Below are positions 20,258-48,100 of a stretch of 59,458 nt of DNA, in pieces (positions within the stretch are counted from its first letter, which is position 1; each line of letters begins with the position of its first letter). The position numbers were made by a program, and so were the translations under genes. This DNA is from a virus (lineage: Duplodnaviria > Caudoviricetes), in IMG/VR virus record IMGVR_UViG_3300042542_000678, positions 1 through 59,458 of that record; one strand, written 5' to 3'. The notes under the pieces are model-generated. The model saw only the letters and a program-made list of their open reading frames with translations, made no database searches and was not told where the DNA came from.

Positions 20258-20749
20258 ATCGTGAATTATTATTGTTATTCTATCTATTGTCTACTATATA
20301 GACTTTAAAGCTCTTTAGCGCTACAGGGATTCATTAATTACTATATTAATTGTTTGTTGTTTGTTACACAGAAGCTACAAGCATCATCAGCGTTGTTGTC
20401 TTCTAAGCCCCCTAATCCCCCAATAGAGGTAGTTTTACCGTTTTGAGAAATCTTGTCAAGTGTTATTTTTACATGGTGTTGCTTTCATGTTGAATTGTAG
20501 CACACTTAGGAAGACAAACAACAATGGCCCTAGTGCAAATAGCATCCGTCTATGTCTGCTACAGCATAGCTTAGCATGGATTAAACGACTGTGGTGGCAT
20601 TTGTTTTAGATGGCTGAGGGGTGGGTAGCTTAACCACTTTAAACGCCTGTGTTATTGCTCTCCACAAATCATAGCGTGTGGGAATGGCTGTAGAAAGCTG
20701 TGTGGTTAACAGACTCATTTTCCTGATTTTTGAGTGTGGCTGTATACAT

Positions 20750-21320
20750 ATAGCGCCGTACCCCCCACTGGCCCACACCCGCCCACGCTTAGCCGCGCAC
20801 TGGCGCACACTCGCGCAGCCCTGCACATCCAGCGGCAGGTGAGCGCTACAGCCCTGCGTAAATTCACCCGTCATTCAAAAGAGTCTTAAGAATCAATGAC
20901 TTATAAGACTCTTGAAACTGATTCAAAATCAGCTGCGACATGATATGTTACTGACTAACCGGTCATTAAATACCATACCCCTACACTGTGAAGGGTCGGT
21001 ATATCTATATCCCTATACATCGTATAGTGACTACTCAGTCTACATTGCAACTAATGAGTCAATGCTGCAATGCAATAAACGATGCAAATAATCAACAGCT
21101 TATATATCCCAATGCTGCAATGCAACAAACGACAATGTTGATGAAAGCCTCGCACAAACCGAAGGCTTGTCTACGCCAAGCTTCAGGCATACATACGCAG
21201 CAGCTTTGCTGCCAACAACAAACAACAAAACAATTAAATGACGAAAAGCCTCGCATGACATAGGCATCACTCGCGCATGTAATGCAAGCGTCATACGCCG
21301 CAGCTTTGCTGCCTGAGAAA
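20750..21320. repeat. Non-coding divergence region with direct/inverted repeats (probable termini/origin region)
   Basis: GC-rich block 20750-20860; IR AGAGTCTTA..TAAGACTCT 20880-20912; CAATGCTGCAATGCAA at 21060 and 21110; CATACGCmGCAGCTTTGCTGCC at 21192 and 21292. Confidence 0.7.
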
Positions 21321-21328
21321 CCCTACAC

Positions 21329-21358
21329 TTGACAGGGCTATTGAAATGTTTGTATAAT
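21329..21358 (+). promoter_or_regulatory. Early sigma70 promoter P1
   Basis: TTGACA-18 nt-TATAAT. Confidence 0.85.
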
Positions 21359-21416
21359 TGAGGCCGAAACAGCGATGTTGCTGCTTCAAAACGCTACACT
21401 ACCGAAGGTAAACACC

Positions 21417-21647
21417 ATGAAAAAATCACTCAAACGCATTTTCTTTATCTATAGCGAAGCTACTCTCGCTGTGTTCTTTGCCGCCATGTCACTGCTTGAA
21501 GTAGCTTGCTACTTTGCTATTCCGTCATCGGTAAGCTTTGCTGGTGAGCTTGCCCTAGGTGCTGCAATAGGCTTTGCCTTGATGACAGTTGTGTTGGTAA
21601 ATGTAATTTACCGGAATGAAAAGCGTAACAGCATTAACATTATCTGA
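21417..21647 (+). CDS. Small membrane protein (two hydrophobic segments)
   Basis: ATG at 21417 after AAGGT; MKKSLKRIFF... Confidence 0.6.
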   Translation: MKKSLKRIFFIYSEATLAVFFAAMSLLEVACYFAIPSSVSFAGELALGAAIGFALMTVVLVNVIYRNEKRNSINII

Positions 21648-21659
21648 AAGATAAACATC

Positions 21660-21857
21660 ATGCAAACCGAACAAATTATCACTGCCTTACACAATGCGAA
21701 GCTGTACGAAGCAGCGAAGCTGCAATGCAATAACTCTAACATTGACAAACTGTCAATGATTATTGCAGTGGCGACAGGGAATGTTGCAACATACAAAGTA
21801 TTGTATGAAATGTTTTGCGAATTGCAAAGCGGCAGCCAAACCTACAACATTATCTGA
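21660..21857 (+). CDS. Hypothetical early protein
   Basis: 65 aa ORF in coupled array. Confidence 0.6.
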   Translation: MQTEQIITALHNAKLYEAAKLQCNNSNIDKLSMIIAVATGNVATYKVLYEMFCELQSGSQTYNII

Positions 21858-21865
21858 AAGATAAC

Positions 21866-21973
21866 ATGAAACATTTGCTCAATTGGCTGACAAACCCTCA
21901 GCCTGTGTCATTAATGACATTCATGTCACCCGTCATAGTGCTTGCTGTGATGTTCGCCATTTTCACTTACTGA
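21866..21973 (+). CDS. 35-aa hydrophobic peptide (not in ORF track)
   Basis: MKHLLNWLTNPQPVSLMTFMSPVIVLAVMFAIFTY; bounded by the same hairpin motif as neighbouring genes. Confidence 0.55.
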   Translation: MKHLLNWLTNPQPVSLMTFMSPVIVLAVMFAIFTY

Positions 21974-21982
21974 AAGTAACTT

Positions 21983-22174
21983 ATGCAAATCGTCACATTG
22001 AAAACCGCCAAAATTGGTGAATACATTAAACGCAAAGCTGACAGCAAAGCTGTATACATCAAGGGTGCATATGACAGAACGACAAAGTCGTTTAGCTGCA
22101 TTGATGTCGAAGACATTTGCCGTGAGATATTTATCAAGGCTGATAAGCCTGTCGTAATCGGCTTCACATATTAA
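21983..22174 (+). CDS. Hypothetical early protein
   Basis: 63 aa ORF ending GFTY. Confidence 0.65.
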   Translation: MQIVTLKTAKIGEYIKRKADSKAVYIKGAYDRTTKSFSCIDVEDICREIFIKADKPVVIGFTY

Positions 22175-22200
22175 ATCGTAGATTTACCTGAAAGTAAACA

Positions 22201-22455
22201 ATGCAAACTATCCGCAACATTCTCGCAAAAGCCGTAGGCTTTACAGTCATTGGTAAGGGCAGCAAGAAACGCCATTACACATTCACATTCAGCGAAGCTG
22301 CTGAGTGGGCAGCATGCTATGGCAGACATGGTGGTGCAAGCATATACAAGGGTGGCATATGGGTAGCATCCAGAGGCAAGCATACGAAACCGCAGGTTTA
22401 TAAAGCTTGGGATGAAAGCCCTAGACTTGACAGGGTTATTGCAAAGTCGTTATAA
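22201..22455 (+). CDS. Hypothetical early protein
   Basis: 84 aa ORF; 3' end runs through promoter P2. Confidence 0.6.
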   Translation: MQTIRNILAKAVGFTVIGKGSKKRHYTFTFSEAAEWAACYGRHGGASIYKGGIWVASRGKHTKPQVYKAWDESPRLDRVIAKSL

Positions 22456-22456
22456 T
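22427..22456 (+). promoter_or_regulatory. Early sigma70 promoter P2
   Basis: TTGACA-18 nt-TATAAT; shares TATAATTGAGGCCGAAACAGC with P1. Confidence 0.85.
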
Positions 22457-22504
22457 TGAGGCCGAAACAGCAATTTCGCTGTGTCACTTACCATAGGTAA
22501 ACAA

Positions 22505-22714
22505 ATGGAAATTATCGTTGAAATTAAAAATGTCTACGGAGTAGAGCAAGTCTACCCTGTATGCAATAAAGCAAAGCTTTTTGCTTCAATTGCAGGGACT
22601 AAAACACTTACTTACAAAGTACTTGCCGATGTTGCGGTACTAGGTTACAAAGTAACCTTGAAAGTGCCAACATTCAATCAATCCCACATTTTGCGTTTGA
22701 AAAATTATTCCTGA
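22505..22714 (+). CDS. Hypothetical early protein
   Basis: ATG 22505; KNVYG...YPVC..AKLFA.IAGTKTLT motif. Confidence 0.7.
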   Translation: MEIIVEIKNVYGVEQVYPVCNKAKLFASIAGTKTLTYKVLADVAVLGYKVTLKVPTFNQSHILRLKNYS

Positions 22715-22727
22715 AAGGAAACACATC

Positions 22728-23483
22728 ATGTTCAAGTCTAAAGCTTTGCTTTCCATCAATGCCGATGCAAAAACTAGCAAGGGTGAAACCTTCGGTTTTC
22801 TGACAGGCATTCTCTATCTAGCACCTTACCTTTCCACAAAGTGGAATACATGCAGCATGGCTAAGATCGCTGAGTGCGGCGAAGCTTGCTTGTACACTGC
22901 TGGCCGTGGTGCGATGTCCACTGTGGCAAATGGCCGTATCAACAAAACCATTTGGTTTTTTACTGAACGAAACAGCTTCATGCAACAGCTTGCTGTAAAC
23001 ATTCGACAGCTAGTGAGCAAAGCTGCTAAGCAAAGCTTAATCCCATTGGTTAGACTCAATGGTACTAGCGACATTCGCTGGGAAAGCGTAGCTTTTACAG
23101 ACACCGATGGTGTGGAATACTCTAGCATCTTCGATGCTTTCCCTACAGTGCAATTCTACGACTACACAAAGGATGTGAATCGTAAGGCTTTGCCTTTAAA
23201 TTACGATCTTACATTCAGCTACAGTGGTGTTGTAGGCTTTCAGCCTTTTGTAAACAAAGCCATTGAAAATGGTATGCGACTCGCTGTTGTTTTCCGTAGT
23301 GTTGCTGCTATACCGAAGGTATTTAAAGGCATGTCGGTCATCGGTGGCGACAACAGTGACATTCGTCACTTAGAGGATAAGGGTGTGGTTGTTGCGCTGT
23401 ATGCCAAGGGCAAAGCGAAGCTTGATATGACAGGCTTTGTCGTTGATGCAGCTAAGCCTGTATTCATGCTGCAAGCCGCCTAA
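22728..23483 (+). CDS. GP88-like protein (Cys cluster, radical-SAM-like)
   Basis: C-x7-C-x3-C cluster followed by AGRG; VRLNGTSDI and QFYDYTK motifs. Confidence 0.65.
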   Translation: MFKSKALLSINADAKTSKGETFGFLTGILYLAPYLSTKWNTCSMAKIAECGEACLYTAGRGAMSTVANGRINKTIWFFTERNSFMQQLAVNIRQLVSKAAKQSLIPLVRLNGTSDIRWESVAFTDTDGVEYSSIFDAFPTVQFYDYTKDVNRKALPLNYDLTFSYSGVVGFQPFVNKAIENGMRLAVVFRSVAAIPKVFKGMSVIGGDNSDIRHLEDKGVVVALYAKGKAKLDMTGFVVDAAKPVFMLQAA

Positions 23484-23659
23484 GCTTAGGCATTCCGTGT
23501 AAGGTTGCGAGTCAGCCTTATGCAGAGTGTCTGTGCCATGATGATGCGAATAGCCATGTGATGATGGGTTGCATTGTGGCACAGGGATCTAGGCCAAGCT
23601 AAGCATATGTTATGCGAGGCAAAAGCCGACTAAGTTGTAGGGTTGTTTTTCTGCAACAG

Positions 23660-23689
23660 TTGACAAGCGAAGCAAGATGTTTGTATAAT
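23660..23689 (+). promoter_or_regulatory. Early sigma70 promoter P3
   Basis: TTGACA-18 nt-TATAAT. Confidence 0.85.
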
Positions 23690-23695
23690 GTAAGG

Positions 23696-23730
23696 GCACT
23701 GATCGTAGTGCAGCAAGTCGCTCTTTAAAA
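23696..23730 (+). promoter_or_regulatory. Hairpin plus boxA-like antitermination site
   Basis: GCACT-GATCGT-AGTGC hairpin, then CGCTCTTTAAAA (cf. boxA consensus YGCTCTTTAACA). Confidence 0.6.
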
Positions 23731-23765
23731 ATCTAATGCTAGTGTCGGTGAGGGTGTGTGTTTCT

Positions 23766-23934
23766 TAGCAGGGCATGCATCACCACTATGGACTAGCCCA
23801 ATCTGTACAGGGTGAATGTACAGGGCATGCTGACATATCATGCTGATAATATGTGAGTGAATCCATTGTGGCTGTTGGGTGATGGCTAGACAATGGGTTT
23901 CAGACAGTGTATTTTGATGCATTGCCTGAAGCTA
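23766..23934 (+). ncRNA. Candidate structured RNA (multibranch)
   Basis: Closing stem CAGG..ATGCATCA / TGATGCAT..CCTG enclosing three hairpins; no credible + strand ORF. Confidence 0.45.
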
Positions 23935-23965
23935 TTTCGCTTCGCTTTCCTATAAGGAAATAAAC

Positions 23966-24394
23966 ATGGCTAAAACAATTATCCCTGTCACTGCTGGTGT
24001 ATCAACATGGGGTGAGAGTGCAGACTGTACAGTCAGGGCACTAGCTAACAGCACTGGTCTACGATATGGCAATGCCCATAACATACTGCGTCAACATGGC
24101 AGGAAAGACAAGCGAGGCTGCACCTGTAATGTGTGGCACGATGCATACATTTCCAATGGCATGTCACTGGTAGGTGTCTACGGCACAACCAAAGGGGCAC
24201 GATACCTAGCGAAGAAGATATCTGTTGTGGCACAGAATGGCACAACCCTTGGCAGCATATTGCCTAAGCTTACAAATGGCAGCTACATAGTCATCATTAC
24301 ACGGCATGCATTGGCTGTGGTCAATGGTGGTGTCGTTGACATGAATTTAAATCGGTCTAACAGCCGTGTCATTGCAGTGTATAAACATTCCTGA
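23966..24394 (+). CDS. Putative papain/C39-like cysteine peptidase-fold protein
   Basis: DCTVRAL (Cys) and RHALAVVNGGVVD (His, Asp) motifs. Confidence 0.45.
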   Translation: MAKTIIPVTAGVSTWGESADCTVRALANSTGLRYGNAHNILRQHGRKDKRGCTCNVWHDAYISNGMSLVGVYGTTKGARYLAKKISVVAQNGTTLGSILPKLTNGSYIVIITRHALAVVNGGVVDMNLNRSNSRVIAVYKHS

Positions 24395-24407
24395 AAGGAA
24401 ACATATT

Positions 24408-24659
24408 ATGACTTATTGCCAAAAACACAATTATACAATTACCCTTTACCCATATGGTGAGGATGTGGGCATGGGTATCGTCAAGATATCACCCTCTACA
24501 CAGTATGGGTATTGGGAACATGGATACGGCAGCGAGGGTGGTGGGCTGTGGTTTGAGGGTAAAGAACTGGCAGATTTTGATGGTGATTATATGCTGCCAA
24601 AGGCAGTGGTTAAAATGCTGCGAGATAATGGTTATGCATTAGATGAATCGTTTGATTAA
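24408..24659 (+). CDS. Hypothetical early protein
   Basis: ATG 24408 after AAGGAA; EGGGLWF...L.DFDG...LPK.V motif. Confidence 0.7.
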   Translation: MTYCQKHNYTITLYPYGEDVGMGIVKISPSTQYGYWEHGYGSEGGGLWFEGKELADFDGDYMLPKAVVKMLRDNGYALDESFD

Positions 24660-24679
24660 CTCCTGAAAGGAAACATATT

Positions 24680-25048
24680 ATGTTAGGCATTAATGTTAGA
24701 AACACAAAGGACAAACCCTTTGCTGATTTAATTGTCGATGGTTTTAAAACTATAGAGACACGGGAAAGCAATAGCTTATATCCCTATGTTGGCAAGCGAA
24801 TAGCAATTGTCAGGACAGGTATGGGTAAGGCATTTGCCATAGGCGAAGTTACTATCACTGGTTTTAGTTGGACAAATAGTAAATCAATTTTCGATACCTA
24901 TCAGCCCCTGCACATGGTGACTGAGGACAATGCCTTTTATTTTAAAGAAGGCACAGGCAAGTTCATGTATTTCTTAGAGAATGCTGTGCGTTATAAAACA
25001 CCTGTTGCTGTTGGCAAGGGTATAGTGGCTAGACAATTAATATCCTGA
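24680..25048 (+). CDS. ASCH/PUA-like domain protein
   Basis: PFADLIVDGFKTIETR matches the ASCH GxKxxExR motif. Confidence 0.75.
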   Translation: MLGINVRNTKDKPFADLIVDGFKTIETRESNSLYPYVGKRIAIVRTGMGKAFAIGEVTITGFSWTNSKSIFDTYQPLHMVTEDNAFYFKEGTGKFMYFLENAVRYKTPVAVGKGIVARQLIS

Positions 25049-25061
25049 AAGGAAACATATT

Positions 25062-25451
25062 ATGAAAGTATTCGTATACTTTAACCTGCACCGCAAGCTG
25101 TTCAGTATCAAGGCACTTGAGGGTGACATGAAGGGGCGTGTCATAGCACATCGTCAACAGGTGCTGCTCAATGATGCGACATTCAAGGTGTCTGAGGCAG
25201 GACGGCAGCGTGTCATCCGTGAGCGGCGTAAGAATGTACATGCTGGTGTCAGTGGCACATGGTTTGGCGATGATGATGTTCAGGGCAGGACTATTGCATT
25301 CACCACCATCAATGGCTCTGCCATTATGTACAACCCTTACAGGTACAGCACATTCGTTCACTTGTATGGTGAGCATCCGATAACATCTGCCCGACTTGTA
25401 GCGCTGAATGTCAGCGACAGCAAGCGTCCATCCATCCACACTTGGGACTAA
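25062..25451 (+). CDS. Conserved hypothetical phage protein
   Basis: VYFNLH...FKVSEAGRQRV.RE.RKNVHA...YNPY motif. Confidence 0.75.
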   Translation: MKVFVYFNLHRKLFSIKALEGDMKGRVIAHRQQVLLNDATFKVSEAGRQRVIRERRKNVHAGVSGTWFGDDDVQGRTIAFTTINGSAIMYNPYRYSTFVHLYGEHPITSARLVALNVSDSKRPSIHTWD

Positions 25452-25456
25452 ATAAT

Positions 25457-25759
25457 ATGTTACTTAAACTAGGCATATGGAATGTTCGCATTGTTAATAT
25501 TGGCGATCAATATGGCGGGTGGCGTCTTCCTAATGACAAAGCACCGATGGTAGAGTTCTACGATAATAGATATCCGCATACTGACTATGGGCAGTTTGTC
25601 TCACGCTATTATATCTCCACTATACTTAGTCAAGACAGCCGTGGAGGTGAGTACTCTAACGGACTGTGCCTAGATGGTGGAGTGCCAGCATGGCAGGTAT
25701 CTGCTGAGGATATGGCACAGGTTATAACCTTTCTGAAAGAACACAATGGAAACACCTAA
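25457..25759 (+). CDS. Hypothetical protein
   Basis: VEFYD...GQFVSRYY...GLCLDGGVPAW; ATG 25457. Confidence 0.65.
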   Translation: MLLKLGIWNVRIVNIGDQYGGWRLPNDKAPMVEFYDNRYPHTDYGQFVSRYYISTILSQDSRGGEYSNGLCLDGGVPAWQVSAEDMAQVITFLKEHNGNT

Positions 25760-25958
25760 ATGTTATTACAGCTTTTCTCAATCAGCCGATGACGATATTA
25801 ATAATTGGAGCGTCATTGTAGATGGGTCACCAATATGCAGCAAGCGTACATTCCCTGAAGCTGTGCGCTGTGCTGAGAGTTTTAAACTAAACCCTTGCCT
25901 ATACTTTTGGAATGGTGTTATAGGACAGTTTGTTCAACTAGGTATATTGAAGAGGTGA
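25746..25958 (+). CDS. Hypothetical protein
   Basis: 70 aa ORF in array. Confidence 0.55.
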   Translation: METPKCYYSFSQSADDDINNWSVIVDGSPICSKRTFPEAVRCAESFKLNPCLYFWNGVIGQFVQLGILKR

Positions 25959-25962
25959 GAGC

Positions 25963-26181
25963 ATGACAACATACATAGACATGTTTAATGTAGACAACTA
26001 CTACACATGGGAGATGGCAGAGTTACAAGGTGCTGTATACACAGTGAAGATATACTCTGTTGATGACCCCAATGAGTTTCCCGGCTCATATATTATATCA
26101 GACATACTTGATGCCATCAATGTAACATGTGAGATGTTAGATGGTAGCCCACATGTTAGAACCCGTATTAGGAGCGAATAA
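25963..26181 (+). CDS. Hypothetical protein
   Basis: 72 aa ORF with GAGG SD. Confidence 0.55.
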   Translation: MTTYIDMFNVDNYYTWEMAELQGAVYTVKIYSVDDPNEFPGSYIISDILDAINVTCEMLDGSPHVRTRIRSE

Positions 26182-26182
26182 A

Positions 26183-26734
26183 ATGGCTAAAGCAGAACAA
26201 TCCCACGAAGACCAATTAAGCAATGTATTTTTTGCGGATGCATTTCCCGATGCTGATAGTCCCGCTGAACTGTATCGCCAAGTGTACAAATACACCGCTT
26301 GTGGTGCATATCTAAGTATGCAAATCGAATACTACAAAACCATAGAACCCGATGGGTTTAATGACTTTCCTTTTGACAAACTTATCAGCGAGTGGGTTCA
26401 TAGTGACGCACTACACCAACTTGGAACTTGGAAAGACTTAGACCAACAGGGAGTGCTGGTCACTGCAATGATGGTTGGCAGCATTGTCGAAGGCATAGAC
26501 CAATGCACAGAAAGTATTGAAGTCGAAGCCAATCAATTGGACGAAGAACCAGAGGAATTTCACAAGCGCTTTTATGCTGCCTTGGGTGAAGTTGAACAGG
26601 AAGCTGAGTCTATTTGGAATGATACTCATGGATGCGAAACATGTGCCGAACATTGGGGCATTAACCTTGACGAAAAACTGTCCCCTGTTTGGACTAAATG
26701 CCCTGATTGTCAAGGGCATGGTACACCAATTTAA
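26183..26734 (+). CDS. Acidic hypothetical protein with C-terminal CxxC...CxxC
   Basis: ATG 26183 after AGGAG; CETC and CPDC. Confidence 0.65.
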   Translation: MAKAEQSHEDQLSNVFFADAFPDADSPAELYRQVYKYTACGAYLSMQIEYYKTIEPDGFNDFPFDKLISEWVHSDALHQLGTWKDLDQQGVLVTAMMVGSIVEGIDQCTESIEVEANQLDEEPEEFHKRFYAALGEVEQEAESIWNDTHGCETCAEHWGINLDEKLSPVWTKCPDCQGHGTPI

Positions 26735-27058: not shown

Positions 27059-27235
27059 ATGAAAACATTTACAATAGTTATGACCCGTACAGTTTATCAA
27101 TGTGCTGAAATTGAAATAGAAGCGTCCTCTAAATCAGAAGCTGTGCAGCAAGTATTAGATACTCCAGAGCAGCATGTGTGGGAGACAGACTTTATATTAG
27201 ATTATGAAATTGCTTACCTAGAGGAAACAAAATGA
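27059..27235 (+). CDS. Small acidic protein (IEASS.SEA motif)
   Basis: ATG 27059 after GGAG. Confidence 0.6.
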   Translation: MKTFTIVMTRTVYQCAEIEIEASSKSEAVQQVLDTPEQHVWETDFILDYEIAYLEETK

Positions 27236-27408
27236 AACTAGAAGATGTTCAGATAGCGTTATTCGCTGCATATGATCTAAGTAATTCCATGATTGTCATG
27301 GGTTTAGGTTCACGACCAACTGAGAATGATACATTTGAGGAAAGCATTGCAGTGATCATTGATTTTTTAATTAGTCTTGAAACACAAATAGTAGAGGAAT
27401 CAAAATGA
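27232..27408 (+). CDS. Hypothetical protein (not in ORF track)
   Basis: 58 aa MKLEDVQIALFAAYDL..., ATGA overlaps at both ends. Confidence 0.6.
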   Translation: MKLEDVQIALFAAYDLSNSMIVMGLGSRPTENDTFEESIAVIIDFLISLETQIVEESK

Positions 27409-27638
27409 AACAATCAGACTATTCAAGACTTGAAGACATGTTAGGTCGTGCCTATGAATTGGCAGTACAGGTGGTGAACGGAGACAAGGCATCCATCTCA
27501 CTTGCTGAGGAAGTATCAGGTGAGTGCGCTGAGTTGCTAGCTCTAATGGATGGCGACATGGGTGCATTCGGTGAAGAGGAATTAATCGATAAAGAACTGC
27601 AATCTCTGGCTTTCGCATTAAACAAGGAAACAAAATGA
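27405..27638 (+). CDS. Hypothetical protein
   Basis: 77 aa, GAGG SD, coupled. Confidence 0.6.
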   Translation: MKQSDYSRLEDMLGRAYELAVQVVNGDKASISLAEEVSGECAELLALMDGDMGAFGEEELIDKELQSLAFALNKETK

Positions 27639-27907
27639 AAACATTCACAGTTATTGTATACTCCGATGCAGGGCATGCATGGGGTAAGGTGAAGCGTCAA
27701 GTGCTGGTGAATCTAGGCATTGCAGACAAGGTGTCTACATACAGCTACCAGTACAAGGACAATGTATATCTTGAAGAAGATTGCGATCTTAGGCTATTAA
27801 TGGAGGCACTGCCTGAAACAACTCGCATTAAGTTTGTTGAGAAGCACACTGATAATAACAGCCGCATCCGTTCATACTCTAGTTACTCCACAGAAAGCGC
27901 AACATGA
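27635..27907 (+). CDS. Conserved hypothetical protein
   Basis: DAGHAW...YSY...VYLEEDCD motif. Confidence 0.7.
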   Translation: MKTFTVIVYSDAGHAWGKVKRQVLVNLGIADKVSTYSYQYKDNVYLEEDCDLRLLMEALPETTRIKFVEKHTDNNSRIRSYSSYSTESAT

Positions 27908-28050
27908 TTGATACTAGAGTGCCATCAATTACACTGGTATATAAACTAGTGAACGCTGCCATACATGAGTTTAAAGATAAAGAATATGAAGAGGCTATTG
28001 AGTCACTTGAGATGGCGAAAAGAACTCTTGAGGATATAGCAGATGTCTAA
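27904..28050 (+). CDS. Hypothetical protein (not in ORF track)
   Basis: 48 aa helical ORF, ATGA-coupled. Confidence 0.5.
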   Translation: MIDTRVPSITLVYKLVNAAIHEFKDKEYEEAIESLEMAKRTLEDIADV

Positions 28051-28291
28051 TCTAATAAAGGTTACAATTTTCTGTGCGTTAGTATTAGCATCTAATGTAG
28101 CAAACTTTTGGGCAGGTGGTGAATATGAGCGCATGAAGCAAGAGCTTGTTGATGCACATGTTCAAAGTAGATGTTATGCTAAAGATAAGTTCGAAGCCTT
28201 CGTGGCTAAGGATGGTGTGGACTACGCTTGTTTCAAACAAAACATTGAGACAAAGAAGATTAGCAGATCATCAATTGTGTTAGATAATTAA
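28043..28291 (+). CDS. Hypothetical protein with N-terminal hydrophobic segment
   Basis: 82 aa ORF. Confidence 0.55.
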   Translation: MSNLIKVTIFCALVLASNVANFWAGGEYERMKQELVDAHVQSRCYAKDKFEAFVAKDGVDYACFKQNIETKKISRSSIVLDN

Positions 28292-28292
28292 T

Positions 28293-28457
28293 ATGTCACT
28301 AGAATATATGCTTGGATATATGCAAGGACGCAGAGGACAATTTCGTTTCCGGCAAAATGTCAGTGATGAATACAATGCCGGATACTTAAAAGGGTTTGCG
28401 TTATATGAGGGTGACATAATGATACTGAGACAACTAGTTAATAGGTACAACAAATGA
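28293..28457 (+). CDS. Hypothetical protein (not in ORF track)
   Basis: 54 aa, EY..GY repeats, coupled to next ORF. Confidence 0.5.
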   Translation: MSLEYMLGYMQGRRGQFRFRQNVSDEYNAGYLKGFALYEGDIMILRQLVNRYNK

Positions 28458-28807
28458 CAAAGAAACAATACACCATTGCAGATATATTACATACCGCTGC
28501 TGATAAATATTTAGTTTCTAATTCACGATATGAGGCAGATCATTTAAAAGAAAGGTTCTCATGCTGTGCAGTCTACTATGCCATCCGTGACATAACTGGT
28601 AACTTTTATGGTTTTGATTCAGAAATATTGCGTGATCAAGTCATGAAAGGATTAACTAATATGGGATGTAAAGTAGGAAGTCATACTTTGTTTGAGAAAT
28701 ATGGCGACCAACCTGATGTGTATGAAAGCATCACCCACGATGTGCAAGGTATGCGTTATATGTGGCTCAAGTGGGCAGCACTGATGGCTGAAGAGCAAGG
28801 GATTTAA
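28454..28807 (+). CDS. Hypothetical protein
   Basis: 117 aa ORF. Confidence 0.65.
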   Translation: MTKKQYTIADILHTAADKYLVSNSRYEADHLKERFSCCAVYYAIRDITGNFYGFDSEILRDQVMKGLTNMGCKVGSHTLFEKYGDQPDVYESITHDVQGMRYMWLKWAALMAEEQGI

Positions 28808-29158: not shown

Positions 29159-30001
29159 ATGTCTAAACATGTCATCTTCTCCCGCAATGCAAACAACACG
29201 GCCCTGACAACAGAGCGCATCCAACAGCTATCCCCTGCTGTGTTTGCCACTACCAAGCATGACCGCTTGACTGATCGTTATGTTGCGCTGCACACTAGCG
29301 ACCTCATCCCTGTGATGCAGGACTATGGATATGCTCCAGTGCAAGCAGCACAGAAGCGTAGCCGTAAGGTAGCTGCTGAGCATTCGGCCCACATGATTGC
29401 CTTTGCTCGTACTATCGACACTGACTTTGCTCAGGGTGATGTGCGTCCTGAAATCATCTTGTACAACAGCCATGATGGCAGCAGCAGCGTCAAGTTGTTT
29501 GCTGGTGCATTCCGTTTCATCTGCTCTAACGGCATCGTTGCTGGTGACGGCTTCCAGAATCGTATGTATCACAACACCTCTGCATTGTCAGGCTTTGAAG
29601 ACATGCTGCGTAACACAGTGGCTAACCTGCCAGCTATGATGGAGCGTATCAACCTGCTCAAGAGTGTGCAACTGTCCAGTGCATCAGCGTATGAGATGGC
29701 TAAGCGTAGCGTTGCTACTCGTTGGGACATGTACGATACACAGGAGAAGGGTGTCTATGCCATCGAGAAAACCATCACCGATGTGCTTGCCATCAACCGC
29801 AATGAGGATGACCACATGGATGCATTCACTGTGTTCAACCGCATTCAAGAGAGCGTCATCCGTGGCAAGGCATTCGTCAAGAGCCTGACTGAGGCAACAC
29901 CATACGGCTCTATCCGTAAGGCTCGACCCATCAACAGCGTGAAAGAAAACATCCGCATCAATGGCGAGTTGTGGGACATTGCTGAAGAGATGGCTGCGTA
30001 A
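29159..30001 (+). CDS. DUF932-family protein
   Basis: NSHDGSSS...AG.FRFICSNG and FNRIQE motifs. Confidence 0.85.
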   Translation: MSKHVIFSRNANNTALTTERIQQLSPAVFATTKHDRLTDRYVALHTSDLIPVMQDYGYAPVQAAQKRSRKVAAEHSAHMIAFARTIDTDFAQGDVRPEIILYNSHDGSSSVKLFAGAFRFICSNGIVAGDGFQNRMYHNTSALSGFEDMLRNTVANLPAMMERINLLKSVQLSSASAYEMAKRSVATRWDMYDTQEKGVYAIEKTITDVLAINRNEDDHMDAFTVFNRIQESVIRGKAFVKSLTEATPYGSIRKARPINSVKENIRINGELWDIAEEMAA

Positions 30002-30069
30002 CTAGTGTAGTACTTGATGCACATCATTTAAGTATGGTGTGCATTGACAACAACACAAGGGGTATATGT

Positions 30070-30900
30070 ATGGATAAAGACTATGCAATTGGCATGTTCA
30101 TTGGCACAGCTATCGGTGATGCGCTTGGCGCACCGCTAGAATTTACACAGCCAAACACAGGGCATCCGCTCACTGAGATGGTGGGTGGTGGCGCTCACGA
30201 TACTGCTGTTGGTGAGTGGACAGATGACACAGCCATGATGGTATGCATTGCCGATGCGTACATCAACTTCAAAACCTTTTCACCGAAGGTGATTGCTAAT
30301 AATTTCGTTGATTGGAAACGCTACGGCACACATGGTACTCGTGACTATTGCTTTGACATTGGCCGTACAACATCTGATGCACTGTCGAGCATTGAGAAGT
30401 CCCGCATCTATGGTGGCAGCACAGACTACAAGACCAGCGGCAATGGTTCTATCATGCGAATGGCAGCTAATGTTATGGTCAATCATCGATGCATGGCACT
30501 GGCTATTGGTGAGTCTGTTGCGACAGCACTGATTACACACGGCACAAAAGACACTGTGCAATATGTATCGGCACTGGCTGAAGAGCTTCATCGTGGCAGC
30601 AGACTGTCTTGCTATGATGGTCTGCGTGTCAAAGGTGCAGCAAAGCCTGATGGTTCTGTGATGGGCTGCTATGCTTCAGCATGGGATAGCATTGCTCGTA
30701 CAACAAGCTTTAAAGACGCTGTTGTACATGCCATCAACAAGGGTGGTGACGCTGACACAGTGGGTGCTGTCACTGGTATGATTGCTGGCCGTATCTATGG
30801 CTACTCTGCCATCCCTCAGCGCTGGCTCGACAAGCTGGTCAAGCATGATGAGTTGCTTGTCATGGCAAACGATTTGTACTATCTGTACGAAGGAGAATGA
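30070..30900 (+). CDS. ADP-ribosylglycohydrolase (DraG/ARH family)
   Basis: GDALG.P.EF, WTDDT, DIG.T, GNGS.MR and GGDADT motifs. Confidence 0.92.
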   Translation: MDKDYAIGMFIGTAIGDALGAPLEFTQPNTGHPLTEMVGGGAHDTAVGEWTDDTAMMVCIADAYINFKTFSPKVIANNFVDWKRYGTHGTRDYCFDIGRTTSDALSSIEKSRIYGGSTDYKTSGNGSIMRMAANVMVNHRCMALAIGESVATALITHGTKDTVQYVSALAEELHRGSRLSCYDGLRVKGAAKPDGSVMGCYASAWDSIARTTSFKDAVVHAINKGGDADTVGAVTGMIAGRIYGYSAIPQRWLDKLVKHDELLVMANDLYYLYEGE

Positions 30901-45123: not shown

Positions 45124-48100
45124 TTATCGTCTAGTAGCTAGGCCACCTCTTGCAAGCTTGGGAGTCATCTCCCTCACCTTCTGCAATGACAGCTTTCGTT
45201 TGTCTTCTTTTATTGCGGGTGTGCCAGTAGCATTGTCTGTTGCTGAAAACTCACGAAGTCTATCCCGCAGTTCCAACAGGTTCTTAGCTTTTTGAGTTGC
45301 CCCAACACTTCTAAGAATGTCAGCAACATCTGGCAGTTTATCAACAACGCCTCCGTGAAAAGCATCATCAATAAATTGGTCAATGCTGGATTGATATTGC
45401 TGACCTGTGCCAGAGCGAACAGTACCCTTAGACATGTTCATATAGTCATTCATTAAGTTACGAACAGCCGTGTAGGACTTATAAGCAAACTTAGCAGATT
45501 CTCTTTCATCAAAAGAATCTAAAGCATTGTCCATTAACTCTTTCAATTCATCTCGTGTTTTAATTATTTCAGCTTTTGGTTTAATGCCAATAAGTGCCCT
45601 GTTAAAAACTTCATCTTTAGGGTTAAGAGCTTTCAGTTTAACATTGTTACCTTTAACACTAAGCTTATTAGCTTCAATTATCATATCTTCTGTTTCATTA
45701 AATCCAGCGCGTGGCAATGATATTGGACGAACAAAGTCTGGCACACCAGTAACAGCACGAATAATAGTGTTCATATCCTTAGCATCATATCCCTTTGGTG
45801 GCATGTTGATGCGAGAGAACTTGTAATCAGCATATGGAATATCAGTATACATAAAGTTATCTACATTGCGCCCACCAAAAGAATTGGCATTAAATCCAAG
45901 ATTCAAATCTTTTGTAAATGAAGGACCACCCACATTCATTTCAAAATGTCCAGTTGTACTTCTTGTTGGGTCATAGAATCCAGACCTATTAAGCTTTTCC
46001 ATTTTCTCTGGTAGACCACCATGATACAAGCGAATGGGTGGAACATCTTTATACTGTTCACGCAATTGTTCAAGCTTGTTTTGTAGCCGCATAGCCATGT
46101 CTTTAGCTTCAGCCATTCCCTCTTTAGTCTTAGGTGAAAGTTCTACATTATACTTTGCACGATATTCGCCTAACAATGTACCAAGAACTTCATCATCAAT
46201 GGTAGCAAAGTTGATGTCATCTCGTAGCCTGAAGAAAGAATCTTCTCGCTTGTTCCTAATCTCTTTAATGATTGCATTGCGCTGAGTAACAGAAGTTTTA
46301 TTAACTTGTTTGTTCAAGTCGCCTATATAAATCTTATCGATCTTTTCTTCAGATAGTGATAGTCTTGGTTTAAGGAATGCTTTAATATCTGATATTGAGT
46401 CGCCTATTGGATTTCCATTATCATCGTACAAAACTTCATCCGTCAAAGATGTAGCGCTATCATCTGTCTTCTTACCAAACGGATTTGCTGGCATCTCATT
46501 CCATTTAACACCAGCAGCTTGACCAGTGTACGAGTGAGCAGTACTCATGTAGTCATCGTAGTTGGCAATCTTCCAGTTCTTAACAAACTCTGGAGTGTAG
46601 TTCTCAGCCATCAGCTTTTCACCAGCGGCGTACTGATCAGGGGTAAAGCCACCAGTGGGCGGTATGACATCATCAAGCTGCTTAGAAGCATCTTGCAAGT
46701 CATCTGCCAGATTAGGCATAGGAGCGGTTTCAACAGCAGCAGCAGGGGGAGGCATGACCTCTTCCATTTGACTCGCCATAGGGGCTTCTGGCTCGATTGG
46801 TGGCACTGGCTCAGAGGCAGCAACAGTCTTCTTGGCAGCAGCCTTCTTAACTGTTGGGATAGCTGTAGTTGTTTGAGGAGCAACAGCTGGTGTTGGTAGA
46901 TTCTTATTAAGAATGTTATCAATAGTAGAAGTATCTACAGGAATGTCAGGAGTGTTTATTGTTCTGAGCCTAGATAAGAAGCCTTGAACTGGAATGTTAG
47001 AGGCTGCTTTACCAGCAAACTTAGATGCCATACCACCAACAGCAAACCTTAAGTCACCAAGCATTGCCTTATATGCGTCAACTTGCATATAGTCATTGGC
47101 TTCTTCAAGCGTCTTACCTTGATTGTCTTTGGCATATCGTTCATTAATAACCTTACGCTCATCACTGGTAAGCTTATTAAATTGCATCTTCTTAACACGA
47201 AGAAGATCATCACTCATAAACTTAGCATCGGTAATATCCCGTGCTATGCTAGTCATTTCGCTAACAGAATTACCAAGCGCCATCTTCTGTTCTGTTGGGC
47301 TTAGTTTCTGATATCGCTCATCATTCATTGCCCGTTTAATTGTTTCAATAACTAATGGGTTTGCCGTTTCAACAAAGGCACGATCATAGCTCTTGTCACC
47401 AGACGAAGGACCATACAGCTTGTATGGGTCAATACCAAGTCTAACGATTTCAGATTCAGCAGGAGTCTTTGCTGGAGTTTCACGGACACCCACCAAGCTG
47501 TAGAAGAACTCACCTTCTTTGTACACTGGACCATCACGCAAGCGAGGAACAGCTTCAGGTAAGCTCTCTTTAAGGATTGGCAGCTTGCTTTGAACACGCT
47601 GTGCGCCAGCTTCAACCAACGTAGGAACGGGCATTCCCATAACTGTCTTATCACCAGTGATGACATTAGGGTCACGCTGGATAGAGCCTTCCTCACGGAA
47701 CAAATCAAGAAACTCATAGGCACTCTTGAATACAAACGGCTGTGAGAATCGTGCAGTGAAGTCACCCAATACTTTACCAATTGCAATCTCAAGCTTATCT
47801 GCGTCTTTCTCAGAAGACACAGCAGCGAATACCTGATCAAGTAATTGAGCTTGTGTACCAGCTGGCATTTTCATACCAACAATGGCTTCAACCATTTCAG
47901 CTGTCTTTGGCTCAAGGCCAAGCTTGCGTTTGGCTAAGAAGTCAGCAACGGCAAGTGTTGGTCCAAGCGGAAAGATTGAGCGAGTATCATAAGTACCGCC
48001 ATCATCCTTCTTCATATTAAACCAATCAGTGTCTTGGTTGTTTAGACGATAGTCATACGCAGCAGCAAGCGCTGCCGTACCAACAATACCTTTAGCGATG

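Follow-up and report, generated by a model that had tools for sequence, protein, structure and literature searches.

A shared triloop hairpin at early-gene start regions, set in a hairpin-filled early region, in a clade of uncultured freshwater phages

What is a small hairpin doing in front of nearly every early gene of a phage, and why are the genes behind it full of hairpins as well? The question is raised by one complete IMG/VR virus record (IMGVR_UViG_3300042542_000678; Duplodnaviria, Caudoviricetes), whose 59,458 bases are the window throughout this text. Between positions 21400 and 25748, a reading of the sequence alone had noticed twelve hairpins, nearly all with 3-nt loops and each just before a start codon, and had proposed that they form a shared translational-control or RNA-processing element, a set of recombination joints that make the early genes exchangeable, or both. 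The analysis reported here supports a first answer: the translation start regions of the early genes, and of no others, have this junction hairpin in common, and it is under selection. The hairpin-filled early region, of which the junction forms a part, is the larger and more puzzling fact.

All twelve hairpins lie where they had been described, on the plus strand, each 1-8 nt 5' of an ATG that opens an open reading frame (ORF); the spacers are, in order, 6, 5, 1, 3, 2, 4, 7, 5, 7, 8, 8 and 4 nt. At the first genes after the early promoters P1, P2 and P3 stand TACC-GAA-GGTA at 21400-21410 (before ATG 21417; its loop is without a stop, and a covariance model gives it 25.5 bits), TTACC-ATA-GGTAA at 22488-22500 (before ATG 22505) and TTTCCT-ATA-AGGAAA at 23946-23960 (before ATG 23966). 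The upstream TGA, which had been said to lie often in the hairpin, does so in six of the twelve copies. These are TTATCT-GAA-AGATAA at 21640-21654 (before ATG 21660; stop of gene 21417-21647) and again at 21850-21864 (before ATG 21866; stop of gene 21660-21857), TTACT-GAA-AGTAA at 21967-21979 (before ATG 21983; stop of gene 21866-21973), TTCCT-GAA-AGGAA at 22708-22720 (before ATG 22728 of the GP88-family gene; stop of gene 22505-22714) and at 24388-24400 (before ATG 24408; stop of gene 23966-24394), and TCCT-GAA-AGGA at 25043-25053 (before ATG 25062 of a gene like gp82 of phage L5; stop of the ASCH gene). The others are TTTAC(C)T-GAA-AGTAAA at 22183-22198 (before ATG 22201; an upstream TAA lies 9 nt 5'), TCCT-GAA-AGGA at 24661-24671 (before ATG 24680 of the ASCH gene; an upstream TAA ends 1 nt 5') and the weakest copy, TTCT-GAA-AGAA at 25731-25741, which precedes ATG 25746, is embedded in the overlapping gene 25457-25759 and differs from the predicted minimum-energy fold. 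The copy at 22183 had been taken for a hexaloop variant; it is better read as a GAA triloop with one bulged C, and its orthologue in the relative L014 is a perfect TTTACT-GAA-AGTAAA.

In the copies that hold a stop, TGA is made from the last T of the stem and the first two bases of the loop. Such copies are six of the eight within-operon junctions, and a stop lies within 9 nt in two further copies. The element can be written as TTCC-TGA-AAGGAA-ACA-N-ATG, or UUCC-UGA-AAGGAA-ACA-N(2-4)-AUG in its mRNA form, and its consensus across copies is TTCCTGAAAGGAAACA. The junctions have 16-21 near-identical bases in common, and the 21-mer CCTGAAAGGAAACATATTATG is indeed exact three times (24390, 24662 and 25044) and never on the other strand; likewise, the adjacent genes 21417-21647 and 21660-21857 do both end in NII-stop. 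The stems are weak. Free energies as RNA run from -0.8 to -4.0 kcal/mol at 37 C, and with DNA parameters from -0.6 to -3.3 kcal/mol (8 copies folded). The hairpin is the predicted minimum-energy RNA fold in 11 of the 12 copies, and z falls below -2 in one of the 12: the copy at 23946 is the sole individually significant fold (-4.0 kcal/mol, z -3.25).

Could so many small hairpins arise by chance? Counted with stems of 4 bp or more, the triloop hairpins of 21300-25799 number 62, whereas 500 dinucleotide shuffles give 21.0 +/- 4.7 (maximum 41); in the same shuffles, 16 GAA loops stand against 0.30 +/- 0.55 (maximum 3), and 30 hairpins with an ATG no more than 11 nt downstream stand against 4.8 +/- 2.2 (maximum 13). 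The range 21400-25741 holds 16 of the 23 GAA-triloop hairpins of the whole window. Under a covariance model made from the 12 copies, these reach 23.1-30.3 bits, and the next best match in the window, both strands included, has 16.6.

The same holds beyond this phage. Relatives were gathered by a protein search with the GP88-family product (22728-23483), which gave 178, and the best 80 loci were kept. Run across relatives, as the sequence-only reading had suggested, the covariance model found 241 further copies at E <= 0.05 in 75 of these sources (661,777 bases, both strands), every one of them on the early-gene strand; the claim of a shared start element of early genes, borne out in the window, extends to the family. 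A scan of viral contigs for the exact pattern returned 29 loci, many of them multi-copy, and the element is conserved in 50 or more phages. A census of 80 genomes counted 154 distinct CTGAAAG-type junctions 5' of true ORF starts, and in 82 of these the TGA terminates an upstream ORF that is 35 codons or longer. Among the census stems are TTCCT/AGGAA (93), TCCT/AGGA (37) and TTTCCT/AGGAAA (18), with TTACC/GGTAA, TTCT/AGAA, TTTACT/AGTAAA and TTATCT/AGATAA as rarer forms.

Is it the pairing that is kept, or the sequence? It had been stated that stems change while pairing is kept, and this needs division. Family-wide the stem is nearly invariant, TTCCT/AGGAA, and the first operon of the window carries an unusual share of the variants; over the 84 distinct sequences among the best 150 matches, the near-invariance includes the loop, the closing pair and an AAACA flank. 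Two of the six stem pairs do vary in these 84, by two-sided changes only and with none broken: C-G becomes A-U or U-A in 8 sequences, and U-A becomes C-G in 5. These 13 two-sided cells compare with 0.9 +/- 0.9 in shuffles, in an alignment that was itself fitted to the structure. The start regions of the GP88 gene form an unbiased set, with 52 distinct sequences chosen by protein homology alone and not by structure. There, 75.4% of cells are paired against 61.5 +/- 2.0 after shuffling, and the covariation score is 0.450 against 0.239 shuffled, with slid controls at 0.02-0.14; none of 500 shuffles reaches either value, figures that are not probabilities because the sequences are related. The loop of these start regions varies (GAA, AAA, AA, TA) and the arms remain complementary, so that the statement on changing stems stands for the 52 GP88 start regions, where pairing is taken to be selected.

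The two arms have different roles. GAAAGGA would pair with a 16S rRNA tail ending in CCUCCUUUCU, as it does in many bacteria. The loop and the 3' arm thus read as the ribosome-binding site, and GAAAG is retained even in the AGATAA and AGTAA variants. The 3' arm does hold the Shine-Dalgarno (SD) position, as had been said, but the companion claim that it is at times not an SD falls away: GAAAG, constant and made up of the loop with the two 3'-arm bases next to it, already serves the phage as one of its ribosome-binding words, so that the SD is kept in all GAA-loop variants. Non-early genes begin with aaggaaacaaaATG, gaggaaacaaaATG or taaggaaac...ATG, with no 5' arm; GAAAG occurs no more than 22 nt upstream of 10 of 75 non-early genes, against 2.3% by chance, and AAGGA of 9 of 75. 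AGGAG and GGAGG are found upstream of 0 of 13 early genes. What marks the early genes is therefore a pyrimidine 5' arm that pairs with the ribosome-binding word, plus a stop codon at the loop. The small genes that come next downstream, in 27232-28807, are linked by 4- and 8-nt stop/start overlaps (for instance 27408/27405, 27638/27635, 27907/27904, 28457/28454) and not by hairpins; the hairpin junction is thus a distinct way of linking early genes, and the phage has two such styles.

The junction copies are a minority of all the triloop hairpins listed. A hairpin-dense zone on the plus strand, 21401-23500, holds 30 perfect triloop hairpins with stems of 5-8 bp, the greater part of them within the seven genes that open the early region; the GP88-family gene has 12 hairpins. 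When stems of 5 bp or more are counted, the density in the zone is 14.3 per kb, against 0.7-1.7 per kb in the bulk of the genome, and it weakens beyond 23500, to about 28000. Loops of 4-6 nt reach only ~5 per kb in the zone, and no other loop size rises above background. Within their coding interiors, those seven genes contain 24 hairpins, against 3.3 +/- 1.6 (maximum 9) in 300 shuffles that preserve the protein and the codon pool; the third operon is mildly enriched, with 4 against 1.4 in synonymous shuffles.

Relatives repeat this pattern. Over 79 of them the density is highest where the GP88 gene begins, with 9.7 per kb; between 1 kb on its upstream side and 2.5 kb on its downstream side it remains at 4-6 per kb, and the baseline is ~1.4; four near-complete relatives each have one peak, of 12-20 hairpins per 2 kb, at the early region. 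In 51 distinct hairpin-rich phages the GP88 gene carries a mean of 8.2 hairpins against 1.6 in synonymous shuffles, and for 48 of the 51 none of 60 shuffles reaches the count. For this triloop-hairpin load in early genes no published description was found, in a search to which subscription journals and supplementary files did not belong; in the main paper on HMO-2011-type phages (PMC9038755), the words hairpin, stem-loop, promoter and early have 0 occurrences.

What is conserved inside the genes? One intragenic site is hairpinned in 13 of 13 sequences, as AAAGC-GTA-GCTTT, GAAACC-GTA-GGTTTC, GAAGCT-GTA-AGCTTC or AAACC-ATA-GGTTT, and its stem swaps turn S-V-A of the protein into T-V-G or A-V-S. 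Another shows nine different stems around a TTC loop, and at some sites the hairpin is retained in 45-46 of 72 sequences through different stems. Most sites turn over, with 67 perfect, 67 one-mismatch and 673 two-or-more-mismatch variants at 23 sites. It is thus mainly the hairpin load that is conserved, rather than individual sites.

This turnover counts in favour of a view without any selected structure. On that view, the junction repeats a ribosome-binding site whose palindromic form is accidental, and the hairpins within genes come from templated (quasi-palindrome) mutation in a region prone to it. That new hairpins arise via several simultaneous changes, and that the pairs are Watson-Crick only, would suit it as well. 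Yet such a process leaves aside the two-sided junction changes without broken intermediates, the sites that hold on to a hairpin with changing stems (13 of 13 sequences, or 45-46 of 72), and the excess over shuffles that is present in 48 of 51 hairpin-rich relatives and absent in 19 of 21 hairpin-poor ones that carry the same GP88 gene. It also leaves aside a strong bias of the closing pair: among distinct hairpins of the early region, 5'C..G3' closes 528 and 5'G..C3' closes 61, against 76 and 58 outside it in the same phages. Early-region stems are also longer than those elsewhere in these phages, and the two features together argue for selection for folding and not for a double-stranded protein site. 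An origin of the hairpins in mutation and coincidence is very improbable.

If folding is selected, does it happen in RNA or in DNA? The hairpins could act in DNA, either extruded from the early region when it is supercoiled or transcribed, or formed in the non-template strand of the transcription bubble in the manner of the ops element, with an effect on transcription, on the start of replication or on genome entry; the overlap with stops and ribosome-binding sites would then be mere accommodation. Several features of the hairpins are consistent with this. Their pairs are Watson-Crick with no excess of G.U, the enrichment is specific to 3-nt loops (14.3 per kb against ~5 for loops of 4-6 nt), closing pairs are 80% pyrimidine-5'/purine-3', GAA, GTA and the complement TTC dominate the loops, and hairpins also occur upstream of P1. 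Precedents exist too: passages of PMC4496689 describe 5-7 bp stems with 3-nt loops of phage N4 that extrude at physiological supercoiling, and PMC5995543 describes a non-template-strand hairpin that recruits RfaH. On the other side, the coding-strand position of all 241 junction copies and their fixed distance to the ATG are properties of RNA and translation. Loops favour the sense strand (GTA 89 against TAC 29, AAA 132 against TTT 66), though coding bias could explain this, and perfect sigma-70 promoters already account for early transcription. A virion RNA polymerase of the N4 type was not recognised, a point made inconclusive by a 1745-aa protein without Pfam or PHROG match. Codon phase of the loops (54/31/27), G.U pairs, energies and loop asymmetry do not separate RNA from DNA; action in DNA is considered unlikely.

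The trait has a sharp distribution among relatives. Among 79 loci, 57 reach 4 or more triloop hairpins per kb and for the most part carry TGAAAG-type junctions, and 22 fall below 4; in the latter, the covariance model finds junction copies only in L058 (1) and L059 (2). These hairpin-poor phages share the GP88 gene, in which 1.2 hairpins are counted where 1.0 would be expected. Little or no hairpin load and no junction motif are found in the near-complete relative G005 (72% GP88 identity), an uncultured spring-water podovirus, Limnohabitans phage DC31 and Puniceispirillum phage HMO-2011, the last with only a slight hairpin rise in its first 4 kb. Since hairpin-poor relatives have the same proteins, the proteins do not require the trait, which is a property of lineage: the junction motif and the intragenic hairpin load travel together in one uncultured freshwater phage clade. 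The hairpin-poor loci L089, L092, L096, L099, L101, L102 and L107 have a different conserved GP88 start region, cttatcAAGGATCGATAcatcATG, in which AAGGA sits between short complementary arms (TATC..GATA); this may be what another lineage has as its stereotyped start site.

The transcripts concerned would begin at three sigma-70 promoters on the plus strand, each of the form TTGACA, 18 nt, TATAAT with 12 of 12 consensus matches: P1 at 21329-21358, P2 at 22427-22456, whose -10 box is overlapped by the stop of gene 22201-22455, and P3 at 23660-23689, which is followed by a ~270-nt untranslated leader. Within 21353-21384 and 22451-22482, P1 and P2 are identical from the -10 box through the start region, TATAATTGAGGCCGAAACAGC. 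Their leaders open with hairpins, CAGC-GATGTT-GCTG (21370-21383) after P1 and ACAGC-AATTTC-GCTGT (22467-22482) after P2, and the stems of these vary among copies and relatives (CAGC..GCTG, ACAGC..GCTGT, GGC..GCC) with pairing retained. In the relatives, consensus promoters gave no clean separation of hairpin-rich from hairpin-poor phages.

What, then, does the junction hairpin do? The preferred answer, with a probability of roughly 0.45, is that it works at the level of RNA, as a standard stop/restart junction of hairpin-rich early transcripts that would make exchangeable cassettes of the genes too. This answer is preferred because of the coding-strand orientation, the fixed distance to the ATG and the stop in the loop, and because the element is confined to the transcripts of three promoters, with a covarying hairpin opening each leader. 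On the mRNA, the hairpin, with its stem of 4-6 bp and its 3-nt loop, would half-close the ribosome-binding site. A ribosome terminating the upstream gene would stand on the hairpin and open it, and translation would pass from one small early gene to the next in a coupled series. Genes next to a promoter have the hairpin minus UGA, which would give every early gene a similar start region. The junction would be one case of a habit of the whole clade, that of loading early transcripts with short perfect triloop hairpins, about one per 70 nt. Those within genes would most likely protect or pace the early RNA: they may shield it from endonucleolytic attack, keep Rho from loading or prevent the polymerase from backtracking. 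Near-identical junctions could also recombine, so that early genes would be added, deleted and reordered as cassettes.

Several observations weigh against this stop/restart junction. Stems of -0.8 to -4.0 kcal/mol should be little obstacle to a ribosome, and for one copy no folding is predicted at all; six of the 12 window copies have no upstream stop inside, and in relatives TGA-containing copies also stand at promoter-proximal genes. Coupling does not account for the far commoner intragenic hairpins. Nor is there an RNA signature: the single-mismatch intragenic variants divide into 14 G.T, 16 A.C and 37 others, DNA parameters yield energies similar to those for RNA, and passages of PMC4496689 describe GNA triloops as forming unusually stable DNA mini-hairpins in phage N4. 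Finally, 20901-21400 holds four triloop hairpins on the upstream side of P1, a place that rightward transcription is not expected to cover.

There is also a broader way to see the load. That it is kept throughout the host-transcribed early region despite coordinated amino-acid changes, and that every early junction is itself built as such a hairpin, could point to an unrecognised hairpin-dependent process at the start of infection, an idea that is possible and, for now, doubtful. In such a process, hairpins of the nascent RNA or of the non-template strand might keep host RNA polymerase from backtracking, or safe from Rho, as it transcribes the early DNA and perhaps draws it in; alternatively, they might be a shield against a host defence that attacks single-stranded early RNA.

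Does a protein read the hairpins? In phage T4, RegA and RegB shut off early genes, and RegB targets GGAG in early ribosome-binding sites. By analogy, a trans-acting protein could read the hairpins as tags of early mRNA, as a translational repressor or an endoribonuclease that shuts the early genes off. The absence of AGGAG and GGAGG from the 13 early-gene upstream regions sets the present case apart from RegB targets. A reader would suit a motif that is restricted to early transcripts, near-invariant over 84 distinct copies with loop, closing pair and AAACA flank included, and built on stems too weak to act alone; a clade-specific reader would also suit a clade-specific trait. However, the intragenic stems and loops are too diverse for any sequence-specific reader, and the loop at the GP88 start varies (GAA, AAA, AA, TA) while pairing persists.

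The ASCH protein, proposed earlier as the reader, is encoded at 24680-25048 (Pfam E 5e-5). A homologue is present in one of five near-complete relatives and the motif in all five, one of which has 9 copies without ASCH, and the relative L012 is also without ASCH between its motif copies; with ASCH missing from four of the five near-complete genomes that bear the motif, the proposal is dropped. The gp82-like gene and an ADP-ribosylglycohydrolase gene are present in the window and in four hairpin-rich genomes and absent from the hairpin-poor G005, which is a single negative genome. Where at least 5 kb of flank is available, the gp82-like protein is found in 38 of 38 hairpin-rich and 2 of 16 hairpin-poor loci, a contrast confounded by phylogeny. 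The gene also occurs in the hairpin-poor L058 and in HMO-2011, and the confidently predicted model of its product (predicted local distance difference test, pLDDT, 93) has no structural match that points to RNA binding: Foldseek gave no PDB match at E <= 0.001, the best PDB sequence match has an unconvincing E of 0.028, and NCBIfam and a protein atlas gave none. The gp82-like protein is a lead only, and a dedicated reader is distinctly unlikely.

Another question concerns the exchange of genes. The sequence-only reading had proposed to compare the motif with the breakpoints of gene gain and loss in relatives, and these do coincide with it, swaps included, to the nucleotide. In L014, gene 21983-22174 is missing, and the single junction in its place resembles a hybrid of the two junctions that flank the gene in the window; the cassette 22482-22706 (hairpin plus gene 22505) is missing too, and an extra 300 bp lies between two copies of atatcctgaaaggaaaca at the place of window position 25057. 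In L012, another small gene replaces ASCH between two junctions, and the first two genes stand in reversed order. In lake metagenomes, contigs from related phages (85% likeness) connect 21415 with 21659 and 25041 with 25456; at the second of these joints stand 17 other letters, which again end in aaaggaaacaat. Among blastn alignments of at least 80 nt, with ends at the edges of loci or queries excluded, 47 of 136 distinct alignment ends lie no more than 15 nt from a junction hairpin, against 8.0% expected under uniformity, an enrichment of about four-fold; the remaining ends are mostly fade-outs within diverged genes.

One could go further and suppose that the element is kept as a recombination joint for trading early genes, with the hairpin itself promoting exchange. 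The breakpoints of L014 and L012 and the enriched alignment ends are what such a joint would leave, and passages of PMC4122927 offer a precedent in the PeSL elements of T4-type phages. Against it, the motif fills nearly all of the intergenic space, so that any viable breakpoint falls there; since gene borders and motif sites are the same places, their coincidence with breakpoints does not show that the motif causes recombination, a point that also bears against the cassette part of the preferred RNA-level reading. Selection for future exchangeability is a weak force, and it leaves the conserved ATG distance, the stop in the loop and the intragenic hairpins unexplained. Because of these weaknesses, exchange is treated here as a consequence of the motif, and upkeep of the element for that purpose is quite improbable. 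Of the original proposal, the cassettes bounded by the motif stand as a pattern.

As for the phage, its portal shares 70% identity with the HMO-2011 portal and 80% with the portal of the uncultured spring-water podovirus, identities by which it is classed, from sequence, as a freshwater podophage of the HMO-2011 type. Minus-strand structural genes, including portal and large terminase, occupy 1-20.9 kb and 45-59 kb; the rightward arm from 21.3 kb carries the small early genes, a tyrosine integrase, a T7-type primase-helicase, a family A DNA polymerase and a ribonucleotide reductase. No RNA polymerase was recognised among the phage proteins by Pfam and PHROG matching, in which the 1745-aa virion protein had no match. 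This protein (45124-50361, minus strand) lies amid virion genes, has 24-59% identity among close relatives and is probably an internal or ejection protein. The stretch was found in 19 lake or freshwater metagenome DNA runs from 16 studies (3 possible source runs not counted), and parts of it in contigs of two RNA libraries, which cannot show transcription, ends or strand. With regard to the host, GP88 relatives among genome contigs amounted to only 6 distant matches, in assorted metagenome bins.

The early region holds further points of interest. Between the divergent arms, the gene-free control region 20900-21330 carries two pairs of direct repeats: CAATGCTGCAATGCAA(T/C)AAACGA near 21060 and 21110, and CATACGC(A/C)GCAGCTTTGCTGCC near 21190 and 21295, the second copy of the latter adjoining the -35 box of P1. 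A 13-bp palindrome in the same region, GCAGC-TTT-GCTGC, looks like an operator for a dimeric repressor, in a phage with an integrase. Another gene-free stretch, 480 nt at 23484-23965, holds P3 and the ~270-nt leader of gene 23966; its part 23720-23960 is kept at 72-74% identity in L011 and L019, which are distant relatives. The stretch may encode a small RNA or act as a structured leader, and Rfam gave 0 matches at E <= 1 across 20300-26500.

The two most conserved early genes are the GP88-family gene (22728-23483, PF17338) and the gp82-like gene (25062-25451, PF25735), and the map of HMO-2011 begins with the same two. Both family names come from mycobacteriophage L5, and the gp82-like gene has 68-70% DNA identity over ~180 nt to many Mycobacterium phages, yet this type of phage is known from Alphaproteobacteria. 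A DUF932 gene and the ADP-ribosylglycohydrolase gene (29159-30001 and 30034-30900) lie between the early block and the integrase. On the idea that the early region might be the first to enter the cell, the near-complete G005, which has a direct terminal repeat, offers one view: its early region lies ~15 kb from the record ends, though the repeat may only mark a circular assembly.

Do other phages have such elements? Four known systems come close, each in its own way. In phage N4, as passages of PMC4496689 describe, three early-promoter hairpins on the template strand are read by a virion RNA polymerase of 3500 aa. The likeness lies in short stems (5-7 bp in N4, 4-8 bp here), 3-nt purine-rich loops (here GAA, GTA and ATA), location in the early region, stem bases that vary provided pairing is kept, and a sheared G:A pair. 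Unlike N4, there are dozens of hairpins here, mostly intragenic, with GNA loops on the coding strand and with consensus sigma-70 promoters; the few copies of N4 and its transcription start ~11 nt downstream of the loop (PMC4496689) are features without counterpart in this phage.

Translational coupling by the unfolding of RNA, the form that the preferred reading takes, is a second system; passages of PMC12548453 treat it as established for other genes, such as VII/IX of phage f1 and coat and lysis of MS2. There, as here, a structure covers the downstream ribosome-binding site and the upstream frame ends in or beside it. Those cases are single, gene-specific and inhibitory, however, whereas here one weak stereotyped hairpin recurs at almost all junctions, even in front of promoter-proximal genes, which no reading frame precedes.

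The closest relatives in form are two repeated elements. Cluster K mycobacteriophages carry SAS, which the passages of Pope et al. 2011 (PMC3203893) describe as a short conserved sequence that contains a ribosome-binding site and directly precedes the start codons of a subset of genes. Its 11-19 copies share one orientation and keep to the non-structural half of the genome; roughly every second copy is combined with inverted repeats (ESAS), and the function is given as unknown, with a role in translation initiation suspected. The present element is alike in its 12 copies, all on the plus strand, 1-8 nt 5' of ATG and only in 21400-25741. It is unlike SAS in sequence: the 13-bp sequence of SAS is GGGATAGGAGCCC (PMC3203893). 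The inverted repeats of ESAS are 17 bp long, imperfect, with a 4-13 bp spacer and placed upstream of SAS, in contrast to arms of 4-6 bp with a 3-nt spacer here, in a repeat that itself contains the ribosome-binding site and the upstream stop. Those passages of PMC3203893 also report neither dense intragenic hairpins nor cassette breakpoints.

The other repeated element is PeSL of T4-type phages, of which the passages of Comeau et al. 2014 (PMC4122927) say that each copy has a terminator-like stem-loop and a sigma-70-type promoter. Like the junctions described here, PeSL elements form repeated regulatory cassettes between small early ORFs of plastic regions, with a stem-loop and with SD and start at their end, and insertions, deletions and replacements among close relatives map to them (PMC4122927). 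Unlike PeSL, there are only three promoters for twelve junctions in this phage, the stem-loop contains the SD, where that of PeSL is placed upstream of the promoter, and there is no U-tract. Since defining features of both SAS and PeSL are absent here, the junction is regarded as a new variant and a member of neither. PeSL elements were reportedly the subject of Arbiol et al. (PMC2839356) already in 2010.

Why does this matter? SAS/ESAS and PeSL have been known for more than 10 years without a mechanism, and the present element is an unusually readable case: a 13-nt hairpin in which the stop, the ribosome-binding word and the start can be made out. It is a clean system, since nature supplies copies by the hundred, compensatory variants and close relatives without the trait. 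New questions follow from it. Do weak stereotyped hairpins couple, or standardise, the translation of small early genes? Do standard junctions drive the cassette exchange of early genes that probably serve host takeover? And why load the first transcripts with hairpins at all? Beside the known elements, the intragenic hairpin load stands as a measurable trait of one clade, which constrains how the proteins of these genes evolve and can be screened for in other viral genomes.

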